DNA of 64,000 nucleotides from Candidatus Obscuribacterales bacterium. Its GTDB lineage: Bacteria > Cyanobacteriota > Vampirovibrionia > Obscuribacterales > Obscuribacteraceae. The translations under genes and the position numbers were made by a program. Below are positions 28,565 through 43,817 of the stretch, piece by piece. The stretch lies in contig CBDDIJ010000002.1 in assembly GCA_965228855.1 (NCBI GenBank), positions 1,888,001-1,952,000 of the forward strand, written 5' to 3'. The notes beneath the pieces are model-generated. The model ran no database searches and was not told where the DNA came from. It saw nothing but the letters and a program-made list of their open reading frames with translations. Every line of letters begins with the position of its first letter. Position 1 is the first letter of the stretch.

Positions 28565-28636
28565 CTGGGGTGCAAGGATTCGAACCTCAGAATGGCTGGA
28601 CCAAAACCAGCTGCCTTACCGCTTGGCGACACCCCA
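28565..28636 (-). tRNA. tRNA-Gln(TTG), CCA not encoded
   Basis: Minus strand TGGGGTGTCGCCAAGCGGTAAGGCAGCTGGTTTTGGTCCAGCCATTCTGAGGTTCGAATCCTTGCACCCCAG; cloverleaf with anticodon TTG. Confidence 0.97.
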
Positions 28637-31969: not shown

Positions 31970-33160
31970 TCAAATATTCATGTGCGATACACGAGTCAAT
32001 TCGGCGCTCGCGACGCCCGTGTCCGGGTGCTGGCTGCCCAATAGAGCCTCGCGGATGGTCAGACAATTCGTCAATGCGTTCGCGGCTTTCTTGTAATCTT
32101 TCTGCGCATCGTACAGCTTGCCAAGGTATTCGTAGGTGTCTGCAACGTCTTTGTGATTTCGCGGTAATCTGGCTAGTTGTATCTTCAACGCTGATTGCAA
32201 GTAGCGATCTGCGCTTTTGTAGTCGCCCTCGTTGAGAGCAATTGCGCCGAGACCGGTGAGGCTCTTAGCGACAAGCGGGTGATTGGAGCCCAGCTTCTTT
32301 TCCCGCACGGCCAATGCTTGTTTAAACAACGGCAATGCTTCCGCTTCCCTTCCGGTAACTCGGTATAAACCTGCTAGATCGTTTAAATCAGTGGCCGTAT
32401 CCGGATGTGTGGCGCCGAGCGCTGCTATGTCCATTTCCAAAGCGCGTTTATAACAACTCTCGGCTTCCTTGTATTTACCTGTGTCTCGATAGATCGTTCC
32501 CATGTTGATGAGAATGCTGGAAGTGGCGACGTCATTTTTGCCAAGCGCCTTTTCCTTCAGCGCAAGCGCTTCTCTGTAGTATTTGTTTGCTTTCTCAAAG
32601 CGAGCAGTGTCGCGGTAAACCTTTGCCAACCCGTTTAGAAAGGCAGCACGTCTTGGATCCTGGGGCTCCTTTATATTCTCGTCCCAGAGACGCAACGCCT
32701 TTGTGTAGCAAATCTCCGATTCTTTGAACTTTGATTGATCGCGCAGGACCAGAGCCAGCCCGTTGTAGCTAAGTGGAATTTCTTTTCGATTTTTCTTCAA
32801 CTGGGATTCAGTTGTTTTGACAAGAAATCGAAAGTAATTTTCCGAGCTAGCGTAGTCCGCGGTCACGCGCTTGAGTTCAGCCATATTGTTAATGGCGCTC
32901 AGGTATCTTGTATCTGCGATCCCATACTTCTCGGAATGAGCGATTGCTTGTCGAAATGATTTTTCGGCTTGTGGGTAGTTGCCGGCCTCGAACGCTTGCT
33001 TGCCGTCACCGATTGCGGTGTAGAAGGGAACGCTATCCAGGATGTAGAACCCTGCCACCACCGATGATATCGCGATGACGCATCTTTGATACCACTTGTA
33101 TTTCTTGCTTTCTACAATGGACTTGAAGATTGCTTGAGCGCGCTTGAGTTTCTCTTTCAT
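31970..33160 (-). CDS. Membrane-anchored tetratricopeptide-repeat protein (42-aa kinesin-light-chain-type TPRs)
   Basis: N-terminal TM, then repeats such as HPDTATDLNDLAGLY and HPLVAKSLTGLG. Confidence 0.88.
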   Translation of the reverse strand: MKEKLKRAQAIFKSIVESKKYKWYQRCVIAISSVVAGFYILDSVPFYTAIGDGKQAFEAGNYPQAEKSFRQAIAHSEKYGIADTRYLSAINNMAELKRVTADYASSENYFRFLVKTTESQLKKNRKEIPLSYNGLALVLRDQSKFKESEICYTKALRLWDENIKEPQDPRRAAFLNGLAKVYRDTARFEKANKYYREALALKEKALGKNDVATSSILINMGTIYRDTGKYKEAESCYKRALEMDIAALGATHPDTATDLNDLAGLYRVTGREAEALPLFKQALAVREKKLGSNHPLVAKSLTGLGAIALNEGDYKSADRYLQSALKIQLARLPRNHKDVADTYEYLGKLYDAQKDYKKAANALTNCLTIREALLGSQHPDTGVASAELTRVSHMNI

Positions 33161-33362
33161 GCGAAATCCAATCAAAAACCGCACGACAGGTCGTGAAAGG
33201 CAGTCTGTTCTACGGTTTTTGTACTAAGGTTTTGGAAAGGCGGCTAAGTCCGCCTGCAACAGACTAAGTGTTGAATTGGTTGAAGTCAAGCGGGGTAAAC
33301 CCTGAGGTCGTTTATGTTTAAGAAACTCGGCATCCTGAGTCTGAATGAACGGTGTCAGGGCA

Positions 33363-34676
33363 TCATGAGACGCCCGCTCGCATCGAGTTTGATGCAGCAG
33401 CCAATTGTCGGGAATGAGCGCCGACTGTCAGCGGGCTTGTTAAAGCAACGCATTCTGTTTCCTCCTGCAGTGAGATAAATTGGTCATGAAGAAGTTGGGT
33501 CGCGCGACTAGAGTCGGCTTCATCTATGAGAATTGAAATGGTCGACTCGCTGCTTGAATAGAGTCGCGGTTCAATTCTTGCGGAATTCAGGGTGGCAATT
33601 GCGCGCGAGCGAATCTCAGGAGCATTACCGATTCCCGCACCGACGAGACTAACTCTAGTGACGTTCAAATCAATGAGAACGTCTTTTGCGCCGCACTGAT
33701 TTTTCAAGTCCTCCAGAATCGTTCTAAAGATTGCTTCATCGGAATATCTCAATGAAAGCTGCACGCAGCGCGTGTTTTCGCAAGACCCTTTGCCTTGGGA
33801 AACACTGTCGACGATTATGTTGTCGCGAATGAAGAGAGTTTCGCATTCGGTGAGGAACGAGAACTGCCAGGGAATATCGATGAATGATACGTATGCTTGA
33901 TGCGAGTCTAATGCGACTCCTTTGACTCTACAAACCTTTTCCACGTTACTGTCTCCTGTAATGAGAGTGCCCGGATTGTCCGGTTTAAAAGTATTTCTGA
34001 CACGCAGCTTGATGCTGAAATCTCTGGCGAGTTCTGCAGCGCGTGGATGCAGTACCTGAGCGCCTGCTCGTGCGAGTTCAATTGTTTCCGAGTACGATAT
34101 GGTGTCGAGCAATTCCGCTTGTTGAAATTTGTTAGGGTCGGTCGTGAATATTCCATCCACGTCCGTGTAGATGTGGCATTCATCAGCACCTGCGGCAGCA
34201 GCCAGGGCTACGGCGGAAGTATCGGAACCGCCGCGACCGAGTGTTGTAATTTCGCCGCAATCGCTTTGTCCTTGAAACCCGGCCACAACGATCACGTCGT
34301 GCTCATCGAGAGCGGCACGAATTGAGCCTTTGCATATATCAACGATGCGAGCGCAACTGTGGATATTGTCGGTTTTAATTCCGATTTGGGCTCCGGTAAA
34401 TGACTTAGCTTTTATTCCGCGTTCCTGTAACGCAATAGTCAGAAGTGCGATGGAAACTTGTTCACCGGTCGAGAGCAGAAGGTCTACTTCGCGCTTGTTG
34501 GGTGTCGTTGAGATTCGTTTGGCCAGATCGTACAGATAGTCCGTTGTATCGCCCATCGCCGATACAACTACTACGCATTTATTTTTCTGTTTGGAAACGA
34601 TGTCTACAACGTGATTGATGCGTCCGATGTTTTTGACGGATGTGCCACCAAATTTGAGAACCGAAATCTTGCTCAT
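33363..34676 (-). CDS. lysC: Aspartate kinase
   Basis: KFGGTSV, VVSAMG, GFQG, TLGRGGSDTSA, TDVDGIFTTDP, C-terminal ACT domains; GGAGGAG SD. Confidence 0.93.
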   Translation of the reverse strand: MSKISVLKFGGTSVKNIGRINHVVDIVSKQKNKCVVVVSAMGDTTDYLYDLAKRISTTPNKREVDLLLSTGEQVSIALLTIALQERGIKAKSFTGAQIGIKTDNIHSCARIVDICKGSIRAALDEHDVIVVAGFQGQSDCGEITTLGRGGSDTSAVALAAAAGADECHIYTDVDGIFTTDPNKFQQAELLDTISYSETIELARAGAQVLHPRAAELARDFSIKLRVRNTFKPDNPGTLITGDSNVEKVCRVKGVALDSHQAYVSFIDIPWQFSFLTECETLFIRDNIIVDSVSQGKGSCENTRCVQLSLRYSDEAIFRTILEDLKNQCGAKDVLIDLNVTRVSLVGAGIGNAPEIRSRAIATLNSARIEPRLYSSSESTISILIDEADSSRATQLLHDQFISLQEETECVALTSPLTVGAHSRQLAAASNSMRAGVS

Positions 34677-34684
34677 CGCTCCTC

Positions 34685-35953
34685 CTATTTTGTTTGCACG
34701 AGTGCACGTTCGACTGTGCGAGTTTCCAGCTTCGAATTCACGTCTGTGCTTTTGTTGGTCAGGCTTTGCTGATTGCATGGTGAACCGGAGAGCGCCTGGT
34801 CGAGATCGGCGATCAAGTCTTCGGCTTCTTCGATGCCGGGCGATAGACGAATTAATCCGTCCACGATGCCGCAGTGTTCTCGGATCTCTTTCGGTATCGG
34901 TTTGTGCGTCATCGTTGCTGGATGGCAGATAAGCGATTTAACTCCGCCAAGGCTTTCTGCCAGTTGGAATAAGTTCGTCGAGCTGACCGTGTTTGCCGCG
35001 AAATCAATTCCGCCTTTAACGACGAAAGAAACCATTCCGCCGAAACCGCTCATCTGTTTCGCTGCGAGTTCGTGCTGCGGGTGGCTTGTTAAGCCGGGGT
35101 AGTGAACTGTTTCGACATTCGGATGCGATTCCAGGAACTTCGCTATCGCGAATGCGTTTCGTTCATGCTCTCTCATGCGTAGTTTCAGAGTCTTTAATCC
35201 GCGAAGGACAAGGAAGCAATCGAATGGTCCGGGAACCGCTCCAACAGCGTTGTTGTGGTATTGCAATCGTTCATAAAGATCATCGCTCGATGTGACGATG
35301 GCACCGCCAATGACATCACTATGTCCGCCCAGGTATTTTGTGGTGCTATGAATTATGACGTCGGCGCCAAGTTCCAGTGGTCTTTGGAAATAGGGAGTAG
35401 CAAAAGTGTTATCGACGGCAAGGCGCAGCCCATTTGCATGACAGAGATCGGCGATCGTTCTCACATCAGCTAATCGAAGCAATGGATTCGTCGGTGTTTC
35501 GATCCAGACCAATCGAGTTTTTTCGTTTATAGCCTGTTCAATTTCTTCTATGTTGCGTGCGTTTACGTAAGTGAATGATAAACCGTAGCGTGTTAAAACT
35601 TGCTCGAATAGCCTGTAGACGCCACCATAGACATCCTCTCCCACGATGACGTGATCGCCTGCCGACAGCAGATTTGTAACGGTATAAGCGGCGGATAGTC
35701 CGGACGCGGACGCAAGTGCGTACTTTGCGTTTTCCAGTGACGCAATACATTGTTCCAATGCGGTTCTTGTCGGATTGTGCGTGCGAGCGTATTGATACCC
35801 TTTGTTTACTCCAAGTTCGTCGAGAACGAATGTGGAAGTTTGAAATATCGGTGTGTTTAGTGCTCCTGTGCTTGGATCTGCGTCTTGACCGGCATGAATA
35901 GCGCGGGTTGAGAACTGCTGCTGGTTATTGGGATATTGATTGTAAACACTCAT
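34685..35953 (-). CDS. metB: Cystathionine gamma-synthase/gamma-lyase family PLP enzyme (MetB-like)
   Basis: YARTHNPTR, ETPTNP, DNTFATP, HSTTKYLGGHSD (PLP lysine), AESLGG. MetB assignment over the gamma-lyase rests on the lysC linkage and Met-rich leader. Confidence 0.8.
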   Translation of the reverse strand: MSVYNQYPNNQQQFSTRAIHAGQDADPSTGALNTPIFQTSTFVLDELGVNKGYQYARTHNPTRTALEQCIASLENAKYALASASGLSAAYTVTNLLSAGDHVIVGEDVYGGVYRLFEQVLTRYGLSFTYVNARNIEEIEQAINEKTRLVWIETPTNPLLRLADVRTIADLCHANGLRLAVDNTFATPYFQRPLELGADVIIHSTTKYLGGHSDVIGGAIVTSSDDLYERLQYHNNAVGAVPGPFDCFLVLRGLKTLKLRMREHERNAFAIAKFLESHPNVETVHYPGLTSHPQHELAAKQMSGFGGMVSFVVKGGIDFAANTVSSTNLFQLAESLGGVKSLICHPATMTHKPIPKEIREHCGIVDGLIRLSPGIEEAEDLIADLDQALSGSPCNQQSLTNKSTDVNSKLETRTVERALVQTK

Positions 35954-35981
35954 TGGCGTAACTCCTGTGTGTGTGAATGCG

Positions 35982-36015
35982 AAAAAACGCCCCCTCTCAT
36001 CCGAGAGGGGGCGTT
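35982..36015 (-). terminator. Attenuator terminator upstream of metB
   Basis: Minus strand AACGCCCCCTCTC-GGAT-GAGAGGGGGCGTT then TTTT; 13-bp perfect stem ending about 28 nt before the metB ATG. Confidence 0.93.
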
Positions 36016-36043
36016 GAAGTTCTTGATTCTGTTAGCTAATTTC

Positions 36044-36127
36044 TTATGCTATAAACCGTGAACAGCAACGCCACCCTCTCGCGGAGGGCATTTGCATTGC
36101 CATAGACATAGTCACGTGTTTTTGCAT
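36044..36127 (-). CDS. Met/Cys-rich attenuator leader peptide MQKHVTMSMAMQMPSARGWRCCSRFIA (27 aa)
   Basis: ATG at 36127, TAA at 36046-36044; four internal Met codons (7, 9, 11, 13) and tandem Cys (21-22); contains the antiterminator arm. Confidence 0.82.
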   Translation of the reverse strand: MQKHVTMSMAMQMPSARGWRCCSRFIA

Positions 36128-36133
36128 GCCACC

Positions 36134-36161
36134 ATTATGGTCGAACGAAATACTTTGTCAA
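36134..36161 (-). promoter_or_regulatory. Sigma70 promoter of the leader-metB-lysC operon
   Basis: TTGACA (36161-36156) - 16 nt - CATAAT (36139-36134); leader ATG starts 7 nt downstream of the -10. Confidence 0.8.
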
Positions 36162-36260
36162 AGGTTAGCGCGCTCTATGTAACGTTGCTGCAATCTCGTT
36201 CCATATGTATGCAATTTCGATCTGGTTTCAAGATTCGACTTGCTGATGAACTGCAGCAGT

Positions 36261-38441
36261 CTAGAGTTTGGACTGAGCTGAGATAATGAAGTCCATTGGA
36301 TCCTTGTCTTCACTTTTGAGTGACGTAGCATTTATACACTCTGTCATCAATCCGCATTTTGGAAGAGCTGCGCGAATTCGAGCCTCGGTCGCCTCGGTCA
36401 TGTTGCTGTAGAGAATGCCTGTTTGACTCAGTTTTCGCAGGCTGAGCAGAGTATGGTAAATCGCCTTCTCTGATGCTTTGATGTGACTGAGGTGTAGTGC
36501 CTCCAACTTTTTCAGCTTACTAATTACTTCCAGATCGTTATCATCGAGTGGAATGCCTCCCAGGCTGAGCTGCTGCAGATTGGGGCATTTTGCTATTAGG
36601 GGCACGGTCGCGCGTGTTGTTTTTGTGCCGCTCAACCCCAGGGCTTTCATTTTGGCGCCTTTTTTAGTTGCCACCAATTCGACCGTTCTATCCGTAATTT
36701 CCGGACAATCATTCAATTGTAGGTCGTTCAGTTTCGGAAGTGACAGGAGCTTTTCTACGCAATCATCATCACAGGGCGTTGAGTTTAGTACGATACCTTC
36801 AAGTGTTCGACATCCGCTGAGCACTTTGATACCGTTCCTGGTGATATCGGTGACGCCGACGCTCAAGAATTTGAGCTTCGGAAAGCGGCATAGTTCTGCC
36901 ACGACTTCAGGGCTAATATTTTTGCAGTTATCCAAATAAAGCGACTGAAGATTTTTCATCTTCTTGAGCTTTCGAACTTTTGCGAGGGTGATGTTGGTAT
37001 CTTGCAGCGCCAGCTTTTCAATGTTATCCAGCTTGACCAGTTCTGCGAAGCCCGCGTCAGTCAGGTTTGTCGCTGACAGGTCCAGGATTGTCACATTTGG
37101 CGTTCTCAGGTACTTCAATCCGGTTCCAGTTATGGAAGTGTGGTTCAAACTTACTGGAAGAATTTTGTCTTTGTATGTGTAATTCTGGAAGCAAACCAAT
37201 TCTTCATCTCTAAGCAATGTCGAGTTGTACGGCGTATAGTGCTGCTTTGGTGAACGCTCCATGTAATCAGAGTCGCCGCTAGAGTGAAAGAAACTGCTTA
37301 TTTTTTTTGGTTTTTCTGTTATCGGTTTGATCTTGATTGACTCTATGTCGTCCATCCCCGACGTCTCTACTTTTGCGCTCTTTATCGACTTGTCGTGACG
37401 TTTGAATCCGGAGGCGGCTTTAGCTGCCCCGCTATGAGGATCGTGTAGGACAAATGCTGCAAGCCCAAACGCCGCCGCGAGAATTCCGCCGACCGCGACA
37501 ACTGGAAGGGCGGCATGGATGACTCTCAGCGTCATGAATACTTTGTCGCGCTTCGTCGACTCGGTCTTTGCACCACCGGCAGTGCTATCCGGTTTCGCTT
37601 CCAAATCGTGCTTCACTCGCGAAAGCGTCTCCCTGACTTCGATGACACTTTGTGGGCGATCCTTCGGATTTTTCGAAAGCATCGAGTCAAGCAAACGATC
37701 CAGCTGATCGGGAATTTCCCATGCGGGTGCCAGTTCCGAAAGTAGTGGCGGCTGTTGATCAATGTGCTGGCGAAGCAGGTCAAAAATATCTTCGCTGTAA
37801 AACGGGGTCTCGCCGGCTATCATTCGAAAGGCGATACAGGCTAAACCGTAAATGTCGGAGCGTTCGTCACCCAGTCGACCTTGCGCCTGTTCCGGACTGA
37901 TGAACAGCGGGCTCCCGATTGCGGCTCCTGTATCTGTTCGTGATTTCTCCTGGTCGGGATCTTTTGCAAGACCGAAGTCCACTACAACCGCAAGCGGTTC
38001 CGTATCAAAATTTTGCACCATTATATTCGACGTCTTCAGATCTCGATGAGCGATGCTCTTTGAATGCGCGCTCTTTAATCCGTCGCAGATCTGAATCATT
38101 AGATTGAGCGCCAGAGGCAGGGGCAGGCGCCCTTCTTGTTCAATAATTTCGTCAAGACTTTTTCCGTCGACGAAACTCATAATAAGGTAGGCTCGATTCT
38201 TGTGAGTCTTGCCAAAGTTGAGAATCGAAACCAGGTTTGGATGATCTAGCTTGGCGGCGGACTTTGCTTCCTTTTGAAAGCTGATCAAGCCGCGTTCATC
38301 TATATGGCGTAAAACCTTGATAGCGACTCGCTTGTCAAGGTTGCTGTCGTGTGCGCTGAATACTGATGCCGTGGCGCCGCTGGAAATGTAGGTAATATCG
38401 CTGTATCGAGAACCTAGAGCTGACGCGACATCGTCAGGCAT
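36261..38441 (-). CDS. Ser/Thr protein kinase - TM - LRR protein
   Basis: VAIK, HRDLKTSN, DFG, GSPLFISPE; TM LPVVAVGGILAAAFGLAAFVL; LRRs. Start uncertain (ORF open to 38570). Confidence 0.92.
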   Translation of the reverse strand: MPDDVASALGSRYSDITYISSGATASVFSAHDSNLDKRVAIKVLRHIDERGLISFQKEAKSAAKLDHPNLVSILNFGKTHKNRAYLIMSFVDGKSLDEIIEQEGRLPLPLALNLMIQICDGLKSAHSKSIAHRDLKTSNIMVQNFDTEPLAVVVDFGLAKDPDQEKSRTDTGAAIGSPLFISPEQAQGRLGDERSDIYGLACIAFRMIAGETPFYSEDIFDLLRQHIDQQPPLLSELAPAWEIPDQLDRLLDSMLSKNPKDRPQSVIEVRETLSRVKHDLEAKPDSTAGGAKTESTKRDKVFMTLRVIHAALPVVAVGGILAAAFGLAAFVLHDPHSGAAKAASGFKRHDKSIKSAKVETSGMDDIESIKIKPITEKPKKISSFFHSSGDSDYMERSPKQHYTPYNSTLLRDEELVCFQNYTYKDKILPVSLNHTSITGTGLKYLRTPNVTILDLSATNLTDAGFAELVKLDNIEKLALQDTNITLAKVRKLKKMKNLQSLYLDNCKNISPEVVAELCRFPKLKFLSVGVTDITRNGIKVLSGCRTLEGIVLNSTPCDDDCVEKLLSLPKLNDLQLNDCPEITDRTVELVATKKGAKMKALGLSGTKTTRATVPLIAKCPNLQQLSLGGIPLDDNDLEVISKLKKLEALHLSHIKASEKAIYHTLLSLRKLSQTGILYSNMTEATEARIRAALPKCGLMTECINATSLKSEDKDPMDFIISAQSKL

Positions 38442-38827
38442 CTGGTTTGAATTGAGGCTTTTGATAGCTCTCAAAGTGGGATTCCTCGGGGCTCTAGGGA
38501 TTCGAATGCATGGTCGCAGCCGAGCAAAGCTCTTGCGAATACGCAATGCTGTACCAGAAATATATTCCACGGGTATATCGGTTTTTCGCGTCTAAATTCT
38601 GCTCGAAATCCAGAAGAGGCAAGGGCGCCCGGATTTCGATCATTAAACTTTCACGCAGCGTTAAGACCACAACGTTTAGTTGAATAAAGACTACGAGCCA
38701 GTCGCCTATTTACTACCAAATGTGATCGACTGTGTGATGAGGAACGGTCACTTTCGTAAACGTAACCGACATGCGGTAAAACGTCGATCCGGCTACCGAG
38801 GCTCAACCATTCGAGTTCACGGTGCGT

Positions 38828-40972
38828 TCACTCGGGCTGTATCATCTCCAGGCAGTCTTCGACGTTATCACCACTTTTGGGTTTGTTGCCCGGCGTCATA
38901 AACATGCAGTCTCGCCATCGTCTGCGAAGTTCGTCTACGGACTCTGTCGGCGCATCTATTGAAAGCATGAAAATTTTGCGCATGTTTTTCAGCTTGTATA
39001 AGTGAGCAATCCCATTCGCGGAACACATTACTTTTCCGATGTACAGGTATTTTAGTTCGGGAAGATCTCCGAAAATTTTCATCTGCTCATCACCGATTAC
39101 CACTCCTGGTATCTCAATGAATGACAGCCTTTTGCATTTAGCCAGGCAGGCAAGATCTTCAGGTTGTGTGTTGGTAGCACCAAATCCGATGAGCTGAAGA
39201 TTTGGAAGTGCAGTCGTAATTGCGTTTAGCGTTTTGCCCGTCAATTTTTCGCAGCGATTCAAGCGAACATCGATTAGATGTGGCAACTTGAAAAGCGGCT
39301 CTATTCCTGCGTCCGTGAGGTCGGCTCCGTCAAGTTGAACAGTGACTAGGTTGGTGCATTTTGTCAGACAGGCTGCACCTTTATCGGTAACCTTCGATTT
39401 CTTATCGCGCGCGACAAGGACGAGCAGAGATTTGATTTTTGAAACCTCTTCCATCATCTCATCATTCAAGTTTGGATTGGTGTCGAGGCCCAGTTCCATC
39501 AACTTGGGCAGGCGAGACAGCAGGCGCATTTCCTTCGCGCTCACCTTCGTACTTGCCAGAGTCACTGCATGCAAATTGTTCAAGCTCGCGAGAGTCTCGT
39601 ACCCGATAGGTTGTAGGTTTGTGTAATTGAGCTCCAGGCAGAGGTTTGGAATATGTGCCAGATATTTGAGACCCTCTCCGGTTATATTGGAGGCAAAGCT
39701 CAAATTGATGTTGGATGTTGGAAGGGCTTGGCCGTCTAAAACTTCTAGATCTGCATCTGTTAAACTGCCGGCGTCTTTTGCCGCAAGTTGGTCCCAGTCC
39801 AGATGACTCATGAATACAGCGTTTTCGAAACGAAACAAGCGGTCAAGTTTCTCGGCTTTTGTTTCCACCTTAGTTGCTTCTGCAGGTTTTCCCTCTAGTA
39901 ATTTATATGCGATTAAACCAAGTACTGATACTACCAGTAGTGCCCCTGCAATTATCGGTATGATAAACTTGGAACGTTTTCGCCGGTTGACTGGTGTGTG
40001 TGCGATCCGGAGCAGGGGCGCTTGTCCCGCTGCAGGCTGTGCCAGGCGCTGACGTTGAATTTCAAGCAAAGCTTCTCTTACTTCTTTGATAGATTGAAAC
40101 CGATCAGCCGGATCTTTTTCAAGCATTTGATCGAGTAAAGGTTGAAGTAAAGGATCGAAATGCAGATGTGGTGCGGCGTCTGTGAGTCGCGGTGGATTAT
40201 CTTCAATGTGCTGACGGAGAAGATCGAACAAATCATCCGACTCGAAAACATATTTACCGGTGATCGCTCGAAAAATGATGCACCCAAATGAGTAGATATC
40301 TGAGCGTTCATCTCCGTGTAATCCCTTCGCCTGTTCGGGACTTATGAATCGAGGCGTACCGCGTAACTTTCCGCTGGACGAACCCTGTCTGGTTTTGTCC
40401 TGCGGTTTTCGTTCTCTTGCTAAACCGAAGTCGACAACAACTGCGTTCACTCCGTCGGTTCCAAAGTTTTGAATGATTATGTTGGATGTTTTCAAATCTC
40501 TGTGTGCAATTTTTTTTCTGTGCGAATGAATCATTCCTTCGCAGATTTGCAAGAAGATTGGTAGCGCGACATCGAATTTGAGAGGACCGCGCTCTTCAAG
40601 CAGATCCTCGAACTCAACTCCTTCCACGAAATCCATAATCAGATAAGCATGGTTTTTCGGCGTGATACCAAAGTTCAGCGTCGCCACTAGATTGCGATGA
40701 TCGAGTTTGCAGGCGGTTTTTGCTTCGTGCTGGAAGTTCATCAGCCGATGCTCGTCAGCGTTCGACAATAGTTTAATAGCAACGCGTTTATCGAGATTTC
40801 TATCCAGCGCGCTAAACACGGAGCTGGTCGCGCCACTCGAAATATATTCTATGTTTGCGAAACGCCCCTCTCCAAGCGCATCGAGCACATCTTGCGGCAA
40901 TTCGCGCTGGTTGAAAACCTCTTCTGTCGCTGAAGCCGTTGGTTCGATATTTGAATTTTGTTCCGCGTTCAT
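38828..40972 (-). CDS. Ser/Thr protein kinase - TM - LRR protein
   Basis: VAIK, HRDLKTSN, DFG, GTPRFISPE; TM IIPIIAGALLVVSVLGLIAY; LRRs. Confidence 0.93.
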   Translation of the reverse strand: MNAEQNSNIEPTASATEEVFNQRELPQDVLDALGEGRFANIEYISSGATSSVFSALDRNLDKRVAIKLLSNADEHRLMNFQHEAKTACKLDHRNLVATLNFGITPKNHAYLIMDFVEGVEFEDLLEERGPLKFDVALPIFLQICEGMIHSHRKKIAHRDLKTSNIIIQNFGTDGVNAVVVDFGLARERKPQDKTRQGSSSGKLRGTPRFISPEQAKGLHGDERSDIYSFGCIIFRAITGKYVFESDDLFDLLRQHIEDNPPRLTDAAPHLHFDPLLQPLLDQMLEKDPADRFQSIKEVREALLEIQRQRLAQPAAGQAPLLRIAHTPVNRRKRSKFIIPIIAGALLVVSVLGLIAYKLLEGKPAEATKVETKAEKLDRLFRFENAVFMSHLDWDQLAAKDAGSLTDADLEVLDGQALPTSNINLSFASNITGEGLKYLAHIPNLCLELNYTNLQPIGYETLASLNNLHAVTLASTKVSAKEMRLLSRLPKLMELGLDTNPNLNDEMMEEVSKIKSLLVLVARDKKSKVTDKGAACLTKCTNLVTVQLDGADLTDAGIEPLFKLPHLIDVRLNRCEKLTGKTLNAITTALPNLQLIGFGATNTQPEDLACLAKCKRLSFIEIPGVVIGDEQMKIFGDLPELKYLYIGKVMCSANGIAHLYKLKNMRKIFMLSIDAPTESVDELRRRWRDCMFMTPGNKPKSGDNVEDCLEMIQPE

Positions 40973-41895
40973 CTCATTGCGAGAATAGAAAGAAGCAATT
41001 CTTCAAATGCATTCTTATCCAGCTGGGATGCGACCTGAACCTTACGCCCGCCGAAGAGAGTTGTGAAAGTTCTGCCCTGGCTTTTGCCGCTGACGTTGGT
41101 ATCCAGCCGCATATCTTTGAATTTAAACAGGCTCGGCTCGATTGCTGCAGCCGCGGTTATGGTATCCCAGAAGTAGTATTCAAAGCCCTTAACCAGCGAC
41201 CAGAGTTTCGTCGCAAGTTTTGATGCTTTCGACTTTTCAGCTTGAATCTCAAGCTTTTGCAAAAATTCTTTTGTGACCGGCAGCTGATTAGTCAAATCTA
41301 GCGTTATAAGTTTAATTGGAATTTTGGTGTCGAGAATGGCTTTGAAAGCGCCCGGATCCGCGTAGAGATTCCATTCGGCGCTGCCATCGTGCCCCTCTTC
41401 CTCAACGTTGCCTGGTACGCTGATGGCACCGCCCATGATGACCATCTCTTTGACCTTCTGGGTTAGATCCGGTTGTTCAGCAAACACTTTGGCGACGTTT
41501 GTGAGTGGACCCGTCGTGACAATAGTCATAGGGACCTTGGTGTTAGCCAGGCAGTCCGCGAATACTGATTCGCAACGCCGCGCGCGCCCCGCCTGGTAAG
41601 GTTCCTTCAAATAATTTTCGCCGAACAAAGGCAACTCGTTGATGATGTGGCTTTCCCTTCTCCAGTTGTCAGGGAATGGATTCGGCATTTCGTCTGGAGT
41701 CATGGCTATCTCGGCGCCTTCAAGATCGAGATAGGTTCCAATCTTCAGCATGACCTCCAGTCCCTGCTCGGCGAAGCAGTCGCCGTTTGTCACGCCGATA
41801 GCCTGCAGTTCGATTTCCGGCGCGAGCCAGAGCAGAATTGTGCTTATCAGATCATCTACGTGACCGTCGTGGTCGTGAAGGACAGGCTGACCCAT
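40969..41895 (-). CDS. Nucleoside hydrolase
   Basis: DHDGHVDD Asp cluster, TGPLTN, MGGA, AEWNLYADP, YFWD. Confidence 0.93.
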   Translation of the reverse strand: MGQPVLHDHDGHVDDLISTILLWLAPEIELQAIGVTNGDCFAEQGLEVMLKIGTYLDLEGAEIAMTPDEMPNPFPDNWRRESHIINELPLFGENYLKEPYQAGRARRCESVFADCLANTKVPMTIVTTGPLTNVAKVFAEQPDLTQKVKEMVIMGGAISVPGNVEEEGHDGSAEWNLYADPGAFKAILDTKIPIKLITLDLTNQLPVTKEFLQKLEIQAEKSKASKLATKLWSLVKGFEYYFWDTITAAAAIEPSLFKFKDMRLDTNVSGKSQGRTFTTLFGGRKVQVASQLDKNAFEELLLSILAMR

Positions 41896-41996
41896 CGAGG
41901 CTGACGCTCTCTAGTATGTTGACATCCGGGAAACCAGAAATCAGTTTACTGCGAGCGGGTCCCTCCTTGCATTAGCACATGAGAAATCGTTGAGGT

Positions 41997-43817
41997 TTAT
42001 AACAGGGGAAAGCCGTCTTCGTGTTTCTTCTTGGCTGTATTCACGATTTTTATGCCTGGACGCGCTTGCTTAAGCGCTTGAATAGCCTGGTTCGTGATTT
42101 TCGGACAGCCGTCGATTTTGAGGTCGAGAAGGCGAGGCATACGCGCCATGCGCTTCATAGTTAGATCCGTGATCTCTTGATTTCGCGAAATCGTCAGCGT
42201 GTCAACGTTTAGCGCGAGTATTGGCTTGATTGATTCGTCATTGAGCTCGTTGAATGATACATTCAGGTCTCGAAGTTCAGGCAGATTTTTCAACTTCTTA
42301 TATCCGTCTATTCCAACCGGAGTATAGGACAAGTCCAGTCGTTGAAGATGGGGCGCGATTTTTTGCAGAGAGTCGATTGATTCATGTGTAAGCTTTCTGC
42401 ATCCTGCCAGCCCTAGATATGTGAGAGTCGGGAGTTCGGAAATTTGCGCGATGCCTTCGTCCGTAATCCAGGAATAGCTTATGTTGAGGTGTTTGAGTTT
42501 CTTCAAATCACCGATGAAATGAAGGTGCTCGTCCTTGATCTTAGATTCCGGCATATCAAGTTTTTCGACTGGCTCTTCCTTCAAATATTGGAGACCCCAA
42601 CCTTCCAATCGCATGGCGTACAGCTGAACAGACTTCACTCGTTTGCCGCGCAGATCTTTGAAGTACTCGTCTCCCATTCTGCAGTCGATGTTGGTCCATG
42701 TATCCATGTCGTTCTTCCGAAACGGCATAAACTTCCAGTCCTTTTCTTCGACGCCTGTGTAAGTGTAGGATAGCGGTCTCACACTAACTACGGCCTTCTC
42801 CTCGTTTCTAATTGCATTAAGTGAGAACATGCTCGTCGCTGCGATTAAAACTGTTGAGGCTGCCAGGGCGATTCGATGCTGGCGGATAAAGGAGGATGCC
42901 TGGAATTTATTTTTCGTGTATTCCTTACCGTTGTCCGGAAATAGTAATTGTGTTTCTTCCGGCAACAGTGCAAGTAATTCGGACTTGAGTTGATAAAACG
43001 ACTGGTAGCGATCGTTTTTATCCTTCGACATGGCCGTTGAAATAATCTGATCGAGGTCCTCTGAATAGTCGCCTGTATAGCCGCGTTCCGCAAGCTTTGG
43101 CACAGGGCTGTTGACGTGGAGGTCGAATAGCTCGATTTGGTTTTGTCCTTTAAATGGCGGCGTCTTCGTCAACGTTTCAAACATCAAGCACCCGAAGGAG
43201 TAGATGTCCGTGCGATGATCGATTGGTTTTGCTTGAAATTGTTCAGGACTCGAATAGGTTGGTGTTCCGATGACTACACCGGTGCGTGTTAGCTTCTGAT
43301 CGCTGGAAACTACCTTGGCTAGTCCGAAATCGACGATGCGAACGTTGCTGTTATCGTTGGATGCATCTACCAACATCACGTTGCTCGGTTTCAGATCCCT
43401 GTGCATAACGCCCTGACCATGAGCATGCGCAAGTGCATCGCAGATCTGGACAAATACTTTTATTGCCTTTTCCAGAGGCATCGGACCGCTTTCTTTCAGT
43501 GCTTGCGAGAGCGTACCCCCCTCCACCAGATCCATTACAAGAAATAAGAGGCCGTTTTCGCCTCTTCCGAAATCGAGCACTGTGACTATGTTTGGATGAT
43601 GGAGTTTGCTCGCCAGTCTCGCCTCTTGTTGGAAGCGTACGGCAAGCTCTTCAATTGCATGATGGCCCGCGACAACCTTAACTGCTACAGGGCGCGCTAG
43701 CACCGAATCATAGGCGCTGAAAACGCAGGCCATGCCGCCCGCTCCAATACTGCGAATGTTGGCGTATCGGAGCCCTAATGCCGCTTGAATTTGTGAGACG
43801 TCAAATGTACTCGGCAT
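41997..43817 (-). CDS. Ser/Thr protein kinase - TM - LRR protein
   Basis: GAGGMA, VAVK, HRDLKPSN, DFG, GTPTYSSPE; hydrophobic segment IALAASTVLIAATSMF; LRRs. Confidence 0.93.
   Translation of the reverse strand: MPSTFDVSQIQAALGLRYANIRSIGAGGMACVFSAYDSVLARPVAVKVVAGHHAIEELAVRFQQEARLASKLHHPNIVTVLDFGRGENGLLFLVMDLVEGGTLSQALKESGPMPLEKAIKVFVQICDALAHAHGQGVMHRDLKPSNVMLVDASNDNSNVRIVDFGLAKVVSSDQKLTRTGVVIGTPTYSSPEQFQAKPIDHRTDIYSFGCLMFETLTKTPPFKGQNQIELFDLHVNSPVPKLAERGYTGDYSEDLDQIISTAMSKDKNDRYQSFYQLKSELLALLPEETQLLFPDNGKEYTKNKFQASSFIRQHRIALAASTVLIAATSMFSLNAIRNEEKAVVSVRPLSYTYTGVEEKDWKFMPFRKNDMDTWTNIDCRMGDEYFKDLRGKRVKSVQLYAMRLEGWGLQYLKEEPVEKLDMPESKIKDEHLHFIGDLKKLKHLNISYSWITDEGIAQISELPTLTYLGLAGCRKLTHESIDSLQKIAPHLQRLDLSYTPVGIDGYKKLKNLPELRDLNVSFNELNDESIKPILALNVDTLTISRNQEITDLTMKRMARMPRLLDLKIDGCPKITNQAIQALKQARPGIKIVNTAKKKHEDGFPLL

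Follow-up and report, generated by a model that had tools for sequence, protein, structure and literature searches.

A candidate methionine-reading transcription attenuator before a metB-like and aspartate kinase operon in Candidatus Obscuribacterales

We suggest that a short leader in a Candidatus Obscuribacterales genome is very probably a ribosome-mediated transcription attenuator. Judged from its sequence features, it would read charged Met-tRNA through an in-frame tract of Met codons, and it likely controls read-through to a metB-like gene and an aspartate kinase gene. The leader lies on the minus strand of the 64,000-nt stretch of contig CBDDIJ010000002.1 that was analysed (the window). 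All four sequence-level features of a classical attenuator are present, i.e., a Met-enriched ORF, an intrinsic terminator, a mutually exclusive antiterminator and a protector over the control codons.

The locus opens with a predicted sigma-70-type promoter (36134-36161), in which TTGACA (36161-36156) and CATAAT (36139-36134) are separated by a 16-nt spacer. It is the top scorer of six sigma-70-like sites in 33000-37000 (11/12; shuffled sequences give 4.1 sites), and the pattern (T/G)TGAC(A/T), 16-nt spacer, (C/G)ATAAT recurs in 15/15 leaders checked. The leader ORF (36127-36044) has 27 codons plus TAA. Its product is MQKHVTMSMAMQMPSARGWRCCSRFIA, with Met at codons 7, 9, 11 and 13 (the tract M-S-M-A-M-Q-M, 36089-36109). 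Because the ATG sits 6 nt past the -10 box, where the start of transcription is expected, the leader mRNA is predicted to be leaderless, with the ATG at +1; the gap is 6-7 nt in 15/15 leaders checked. Anti-SD pairing ahead of the leader ATG is weak, with a mean of -3.3 kcal/mol over the 22 scored of 24 representative leaders.

Downstream, three alternative pairings can be drawn. A predicted protector or pause hairpin, 1:2 (36062-36103), pairs 36103-36084 with 36078-36062, that is, nt 25-44 with nt 50-66 of the leader. Met9-Met13 are inside the stem, and a predicted outer helix could extend it to 36121-36053 (nt 7-75). Arm 2 (36066-36080) is the 5' strand of the predicted antiterminator and can pair with 36016-36003 over 14 bp with one bulge, inner helices lengthening the pairing. 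The predicted intrinsic terminator 3:4 (35982-36016), the 5' strand of which is arm 3, has its stem at 36015-35986 and a U6 tract at 35987-35982; the hairpin has 13 bp and -26.5 kcal/mol, and its final two pairs draw on the U-tract. The first structural gene follows, with a Shine-Dalgarno AGGAG at 35962-35966 and its ATG at 35953. A sequence-only reading of this DNA had described the promoter, the 27-codon ORF with its four Met codons, the antiterminator arm and the U-tailed terminator, and all are located on the minus strand where it placed them. It had also proposed a small protector, GCCCTC/GAGGGT. These strands are found at 36089-36084/36078-36073, but the predicted stem is far longer than 6 bp and includes Met codons. 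Upstream of the leader are three Ser/Thr-kinase-like ORFs with leucine-rich-repeat-like C-termini (36261-43817, minus strand), and the first, the sole one of the three scanned, has PF00069 and LRR matches. A tRNA gene at 28565-28636 (minus strand) is the sole Rfam match in the window.

The first structural gene encodes a metB-like PLP enzyme of 422 aa (34685-35953). The lysC-like aspartate kinase gene (33363-34676) starts 8 nt past the metB stop, which is overlapped by a GGAGG. The sequence-only reading took the pair for Met-biosynthesis genes; PF01053 membership (E 3.5e-152) and the aspartokinase are confirmed, whereas the name metB draws on context. The protein scores 523 bits against the cystathionine gamma-synthase (CGS) model NCBIfam PRK07811 (cut-off 513), other CGS models are not reached, and its nearest solved structures are cystathionine gamma-lyases. 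In its context the enzyme is likely a cystathionine gamma-synthase, though it could be a gamma-lyase. We infer that it works in the forward direction, perhaps with O-phosphohomoserine as substrate. Plant CGS uses O-phosphohomoserine. No metA (PF04204) was found in the source genome (G000, 95% complete), and no metX or homoserine O-acetyltransferase was found at E<=1e-30 in any of the 104 family genomes. The source genome holds two full PF01053 genes; the second is 63% identical and lies after a cystathionine beta-synthase (CBS) gene, near metH. In addition, another aspartokinase adjoins homoserine kinase in the thr operon. From the second PF01053 gene and the separate aspartokinase, we infer that the metB-lysC operon is a Met-dedicated copy. 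The aspartokinase region on contig C4 (L197, G000:C4:175800-178800) is more GC-rich with long opposite-strand ORFs, and may belong to the 5.8% contamination of this genome.

The leader is conserved. Our survey covered 190 loci with a metB-like gene, 53 of which also have lysC. The proposed check, i.e., whether orthologous loci carry a Met-rich short ORF (sORF), gave a clear answer: one with at least two Met in codons 5-18 precedes 52 of the 53 metB-lysC loci, and the exception (L040) comes without upstream DNA. Selection of leaders required at least two Met, and every metB-lysC locus with upstream DNA passed. Four further leaders belong to metB loci without lysC in the DNA retrieved, and at three loci (L142, L150, L144) the start was reassigned manually to the ATG behind the promoter. 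The 56 leader loci are redundant and comprise 40 distinct leaders; clustering at 85% identity leaves 24 groups, and the mean identity between pairs is 56%. A promoter-linked Met sORF is found at none of the 19 loci of the CBS-linked paralogue in the same lineage, three of which had unlinked sORFs with two Met, and an RNA covariance model of the leader found no match in 14 of these 19. Thus, the leader distinguishes the two 63%-identical paralogues. Most of the nearest named records to the window locus are Ca. Obscuribacterales or Melainabacteria.

The covariance model, built on the 24 cluster representatives, gave 64 matches in 62 of 104 family genomes. Of these matches, 59 are upstream of a metB-like gene (57 within 300 nt of the listed match, and 2 with a truncated or divergent metB), two are directly before lysC, and three weak ones have other genes downstream and are without a Met tract. 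Forty family matches were inspected, and 23 are new relative to the 40 distinct leaders: 19 with at least two internal Met, one with a single Met and three Met-less. At the level of the class, the Met-rich ORF is absent from 6 of 12 weak model matches examined. In two of the same-family loci, Met leaders stand straight before lysC with intact metB missing between (L234:330-470, L235:295-438), and one genome (G093) has the leader in two copies.

The composition of the leader peptides points to Met as the signal. Across the 24 representatives, Met takes 94 of the 408 codons at positions 2-18 (23%), which is 11.7 times its proteome frequency, and all 94 ATG triplets within nt 4-57 are in frame. 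The residues that separate the Mets vary between leaders, the distance from the start to the tract differs by whole codons, and 9-20 codons follow the last control Met. In the source genome, 263 sORFs lie upstream of 280 terminator-like hairpins, and only the window sORF has at least four Met in eight codons. Leaders of one genus (g16; L012, L241, L245, L249-L251) have just one or two internal Met codons, with Lys or Arg codons before them. Co-sensing of Cys was ruled out, since 15 of 24 leader peptides have no Cys and the Cys-Cys of the window peptide is not conserved. A Thr/Met/Val-rich sORF at C2:585203 was also dropped; it has non-Met genes downstream and resembles an alternative frame within the repeat-rich end of a gene.

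Aspartate kinase supplies more than one pathway, so the leader could instead be a multivalent sensor of the aspartate family that reads Thr and other codons besides Met, as thrL does with Thr and Ile. Thr is indeed the second commonest residue in codons 2-18 (44/408, 1.8 times proteome), Thr runs precede the Met tract in several clusters, and lysC is in the operon. We consider this reading improbable, as 6 of 24 leaders have no Thr in codons 2-18, the window leader has a single one there, and Thr is enriched to a degree similar to Asn, Arg and Pro (1.6-2.0 times). Behind Met at 11.7 times, the most enriched residues in codons 2-18 of the 24 representatives are Asn (2.0 times proteome) and Thr and Arg (1.8 times each). 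Moreover, a separate aspartokinase adjoins homoserine kinase in the thr operon.

If the leader is a Met-reading attenuator, we suggest the following sequence of events. Transcription would begin at the leader AUG, and hairpin 1:2 would hold RNA polymerase until a ribosome loads. When Met is ample, the ribosome would pass the tract and, with its A-site between codons 15 and 22 of the window leader, lie over arm 2 as arms 3 and 4 emerge. The terminator would then form, giving an RNA of about 146 nt that ends near 35982. When charged Met-tRNA is scarce, the ribosome would stall at codons 7-13 and mask arm 1 but not arm 2; arm 3 would be taken up in the long 2:3 helix, and the operon would be transcribed. 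Owing to the 9-20 codons after the tract, a moving ribosome would still sit on arm 2 during synthesis of arms 3 and 4. The geometry is suited to masking, as arm 2 lies just outside the footprint of a ribosome stalled on the last Met codon, and in the 24 representatives the antiterminator arm begins 5 to 16 nt past the last tract Met.

The 1:2, 2:3 and 3:4 helices are mutually exclusive, as had been claimed for the window, and per-sequence folds give all three in 24/24 representatives. To model masking, a 30-nt ribosome footprint was blocked and the RNA was cut after arm 3. In this model arm 3 is sequestered in 24/24 leaders if the last Met occupies the A-site, and in 1/24 once the ribosome has moved on by 4-6 codons. 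The idea that a stalled ribosome masks arm 1 and frees arm 2 is thereby supported at the level of the model, with the amendment that the Met codons are themselves part of arm 1. In the cut RNA, arm 3 is already sequestered in 21/24 free leaders and in 19/24 with a ribosome at the stop codon, and therefore termination would have to rely on timing. E. coli controls on cut RNA reach 0.05-0.63 in the free state, below the Met leaders. In 14/24 leaders the antiterminator exceeds the stability of the best fold formed before arm 3; the same holds for 0/6 control leaders. The barrier to entering helix 2:3 hinges on the starting fold (median 5.6 versus 14.8 kcal/mol).

Full-length RNA behaves differently from cut RNA: free, it folds the terminator in 36/40 leaders, whereas the cut form folds 2:3 in 21/24. 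Computing both folds for the window, as the sequence-only reading had advised, gave a mixed outcome. Modelled for the free RNA, the terminator has a probability of 0.95, which drops to about 0 when any codon from Met7 to Ala10 is in the A-site, as expected of a switch. For Met11, however, the value is about 0.75, and for Met13 it reaches about 1, so that a stall at Met13 is still predicted to give the terminator. In full-length equilibrium folds, the terminator falls below 0.5 at the best stall position in just 22/40 leaders. This full-length masked-footprint test is insensitive, because the E. coli thr, trp, his and leu control leaders never switch in it (terminator about 1.0 at every ribosome position).

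The masking model answers to the position of the ribosome and not to the identity of the codon. It is thus compatible with a general sensor of translation stress or antibiotic stalling, for which any slowing within the first 13 codons would do and Met would be incidental. The whiB7 and erm leaders are of this type. The three weak homologues that lack a Met tract, one upstream of an ABC exporter, also speak for it. However, in-frame Met is enriched 11.7-fold while the intervening residues vary, and the linkage to metB/lysC is near-exclusive, which makes a general stall sensor quite unlikely. The Met-less leaders (L237:315-457, L240:368-510, L239:2718-2861) have the same promoter-ATG-hairpin-terminator layout. 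They precede an unnamed protein of 167-181 aa, there with a His/Arg/Cys-containing peptide, and elsewhere an ABC exporter operon.

The RNA structure itself has been maintained during divergence. A hairpin with a U-rich tail is found in 40/40 distinct leaders (the tail is weak in a few, e.g., L007), and in 24/24 representatives an arm is complementary to the 5' strand of the terminator at p<=0.05 versus shuffles. Such an arm is found upstream of 23 of 279 terminator-like hairpins in the source genome; the window terminator ranks first among the 279 (z -7.9, runner-up -3.8). On a MAFFT alignment, each helix of the 1:2/2:3/3:4 layout carries compensatory changes: 80% of cells are paired in helix 2:3 with 33 double changes (0/500 shuffles), 85% in helix 3:4 with 39 (0/500), and 75% in helix 1:2 with 24 (2/500). 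Thus, the anticipated covariation of terminator and antiterminator was found. All three helices exceed the shuffles and all slid registers in cells paired and covariation score, while two of the five measures of covariation (pairs with a double change, further pair types) show no clear gain over shuffles. These values come from leaders that are kin and not independent, and from pairs taken from folds of those very sequences. RNAalifold on the same alignment recovered just the terminator and the inner part of hairpin 1:2; the long protector and helix 2:3 are taken from per-sequence folds.

SAM riboswitches commonly control Met genes, and the Met codons sit in a conserved stem. Potentially, then, the leader could be an RNA switch controlled by a ligand or protein, i.e., an undescribed SAM/Met riboswitch or the site of an RNA-binding protein, with the ORF as a by-product. 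We regard this as very unlikely. The invariant positions are chiefly those of ATG triplets, together with a few G in stems, and the 94/94 ATGs are in frame despite whole-codon shifts in their distance from the start. Rfam gave no match at gathering in the window to a SAM riboswitch, T-box or any leader family, and in 12 homologous loci just three sub-threshold, unrelated matches at E<=1. The sequence-only reading had named a significant SAM or T-box hit as grounds for giving up the attenuator; neither the window nor the 12 loci has one. Likewise, MetJ, SAM-I (RF00162) and T-box (RF00230) were not found in the source genome at its 95% completeness. Finally, an always leaky terminator behind an ORF that arose by chance is hardly credible: short ORFs and hairpins are common (the 263 sORFs before 280 hairpins), but conservation and covariation contradict it.

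Other leaders in the source genome resemble the Met leader in design. A His-rich leader ORF, with seven His in eight codons, and its terminator precede hisG (L192:403-501; G000:C3:1552602, plus strand), and a Trp-rich leader ORF with a terminator precedes a trpE-like gene, with other trp genes following (L193:363-443; G000:C3:2451362, plus strand). Therefore, ribosome-read attenuation appears to be in use in this genome. Met-rich leaders with terminators are also found before other genes. One precedes a SAM hydroxide adenosyltransferase (PF01887/PF20257; L263:918-2183, minus strand), a type of enzyme that releases Met from SAM, and another a small Urm1/ThiS-like protein ending in GG (L254:280-606, minus strand), with a weak PF09138 match (E 0.0016). 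In other families of the class, such leaders precede an unnamed family of 430-570 aa (L255, L256, L258, L265; L270-L299), which has a few hydrophobic segments, no Pfam match and, in the ESM Atlas, hypothetical clusters only. A Met-rich ORF is present at 11 of 30 loci of this family (3 of the 30 repeat L255, L256 and L265), including 8/8 at >=46% identity to L255. Its Met-rich leaders suggest a Met-related role; the family was not found in the source genome with the query used.

A leader peptide that reads Met faces a difficulty, since initiation needs Met too. More tentatively, we propose that the Met attenuator may be ON by default. The antiterminator would win on untranslated RNA, a stall in the Met tract and failed initiation at the leaderless AUG would both give read-through, and termination would follow only when a ribosome crosses arm 2 in step with the polymerase. 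If true, this design would be a way round the requirement for Met at the start of translation as well. In the literature searched, we found nothing on the charging of initiator versus elongator Met-tRNA in bacteria. As part of the same rather doubtful proposal, the Met leaders before lysC, the SAM hydroxide adenosyltransferase, the Urm1/ThiS-like carrier and the unnamed family of about 430 aa could together make up a Met regulon read by ribosomes, which in Vampirovibrionia would stand in for SAM riboswitches, T-boxes and MetJ. The 40 natural variants share a constant geometry and covary in structure, and they make it directly testable whether a lack of Met is reported by ribosomes, and by what route. 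The finding would also put classical attenuation in the non-photosynthetic branch of Cyanobacteriota. A 2016 paper states, in its available part, that there were no reliable data on classical attenuation in cyanobacteria (PMC4833913). For the Obscuribacterales lineage, we found no reports of attenuation in the literature searched, which covers few subscription papers.

Compared with E. coli trpL, hisL, thrL and leuL, the Obscuribacterales leader has a similar short ORF rich in the codon of the end product, the same 1:2/2:3/3:4 helices with a U-tailed terminator, and an arm 2 that lies right outside the stretch covered by a ribosome on the control codons; an aspartate kinase gene follows thrL as well. 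Unlike these leaders, it uses Met as the control codon and is predicted to be leaderless, and its antiterminator is unusually strong next to the E. coli controls. A Pasteurellales thrA leader is closer in its signal. Vitreschak and colleagues reportedly predicted in 2004 that it responds to Thr, Ile and Met, and it would share Met codons, a classical attenuator and a downstream aspartate kinase with our leader. However, that leader is gammaproteobacterial and multivalent for Thr, Ile and Met, whereas the Obscuribacterales leader is Met-dominated. Met genes are normally under the control of MetJ/MetR, SAM riboswitches or T-boxes. SAM riboswitches, Met T-boxes and MetJ act on the same targets, and SAM-I and T-boxes likewise switch between terminator and antiterminator, but the leader matches neither a SAM riboswitch nor a T-box, and the genome search described above gave none of SAM-I, T-box or MetJ.

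The sequence-only reading knew of no characterised Met-dedicated attenuator. In the literature searched, which takes in few subscription papers, we found no tested one, only single putative Met leaders. Seliverstov (2005) reports, in the part available, no conserved structure upstream of actinobacterial Met operons (PMC1262725), and the accessible part of PMC2965389 contains nothing on Met leaders. Even so, the idea of a Met-specific leader has precedents, as putative Met leaders are in print for Deinococcus deserti and Streptomyces lividans, going by the available portions of both articles (PMC4007540, PMC8079986). In D. deserti, Deide_09379 is a putative leader peptide before the Met-tRNA ligase gene, leaderless with its TSS mapped at the ATG (de Groot et al., PMC4007540, Table S9, as far as this source is accessible). 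Like ours, it is a leaderless, Met-containing peptide proposed for transcription attenuation; it differs in having 15 codons, in preceding MetRS rather than a biosynthetic operon, and in being listed as putative. According to the accessible text on S. lividans, metL before metNIQ is a leaderless leader peptide and proposed Met-dependent attenuator, but it has two internal Met and three Cys, a transporter is downstream, and its authors note that a typical Rho-independent terminator is missing (PMC8079986). The polycysteine sORF attenuators of mycobacteria are also leaderless and sense a sulfur amino acid via charged tRNA. As the available part of that report describes them (10.1101/834739), they use Cys and act on translation by SD occlusion, whereas the Obscuribacterales leader has an intrinsic terminator.
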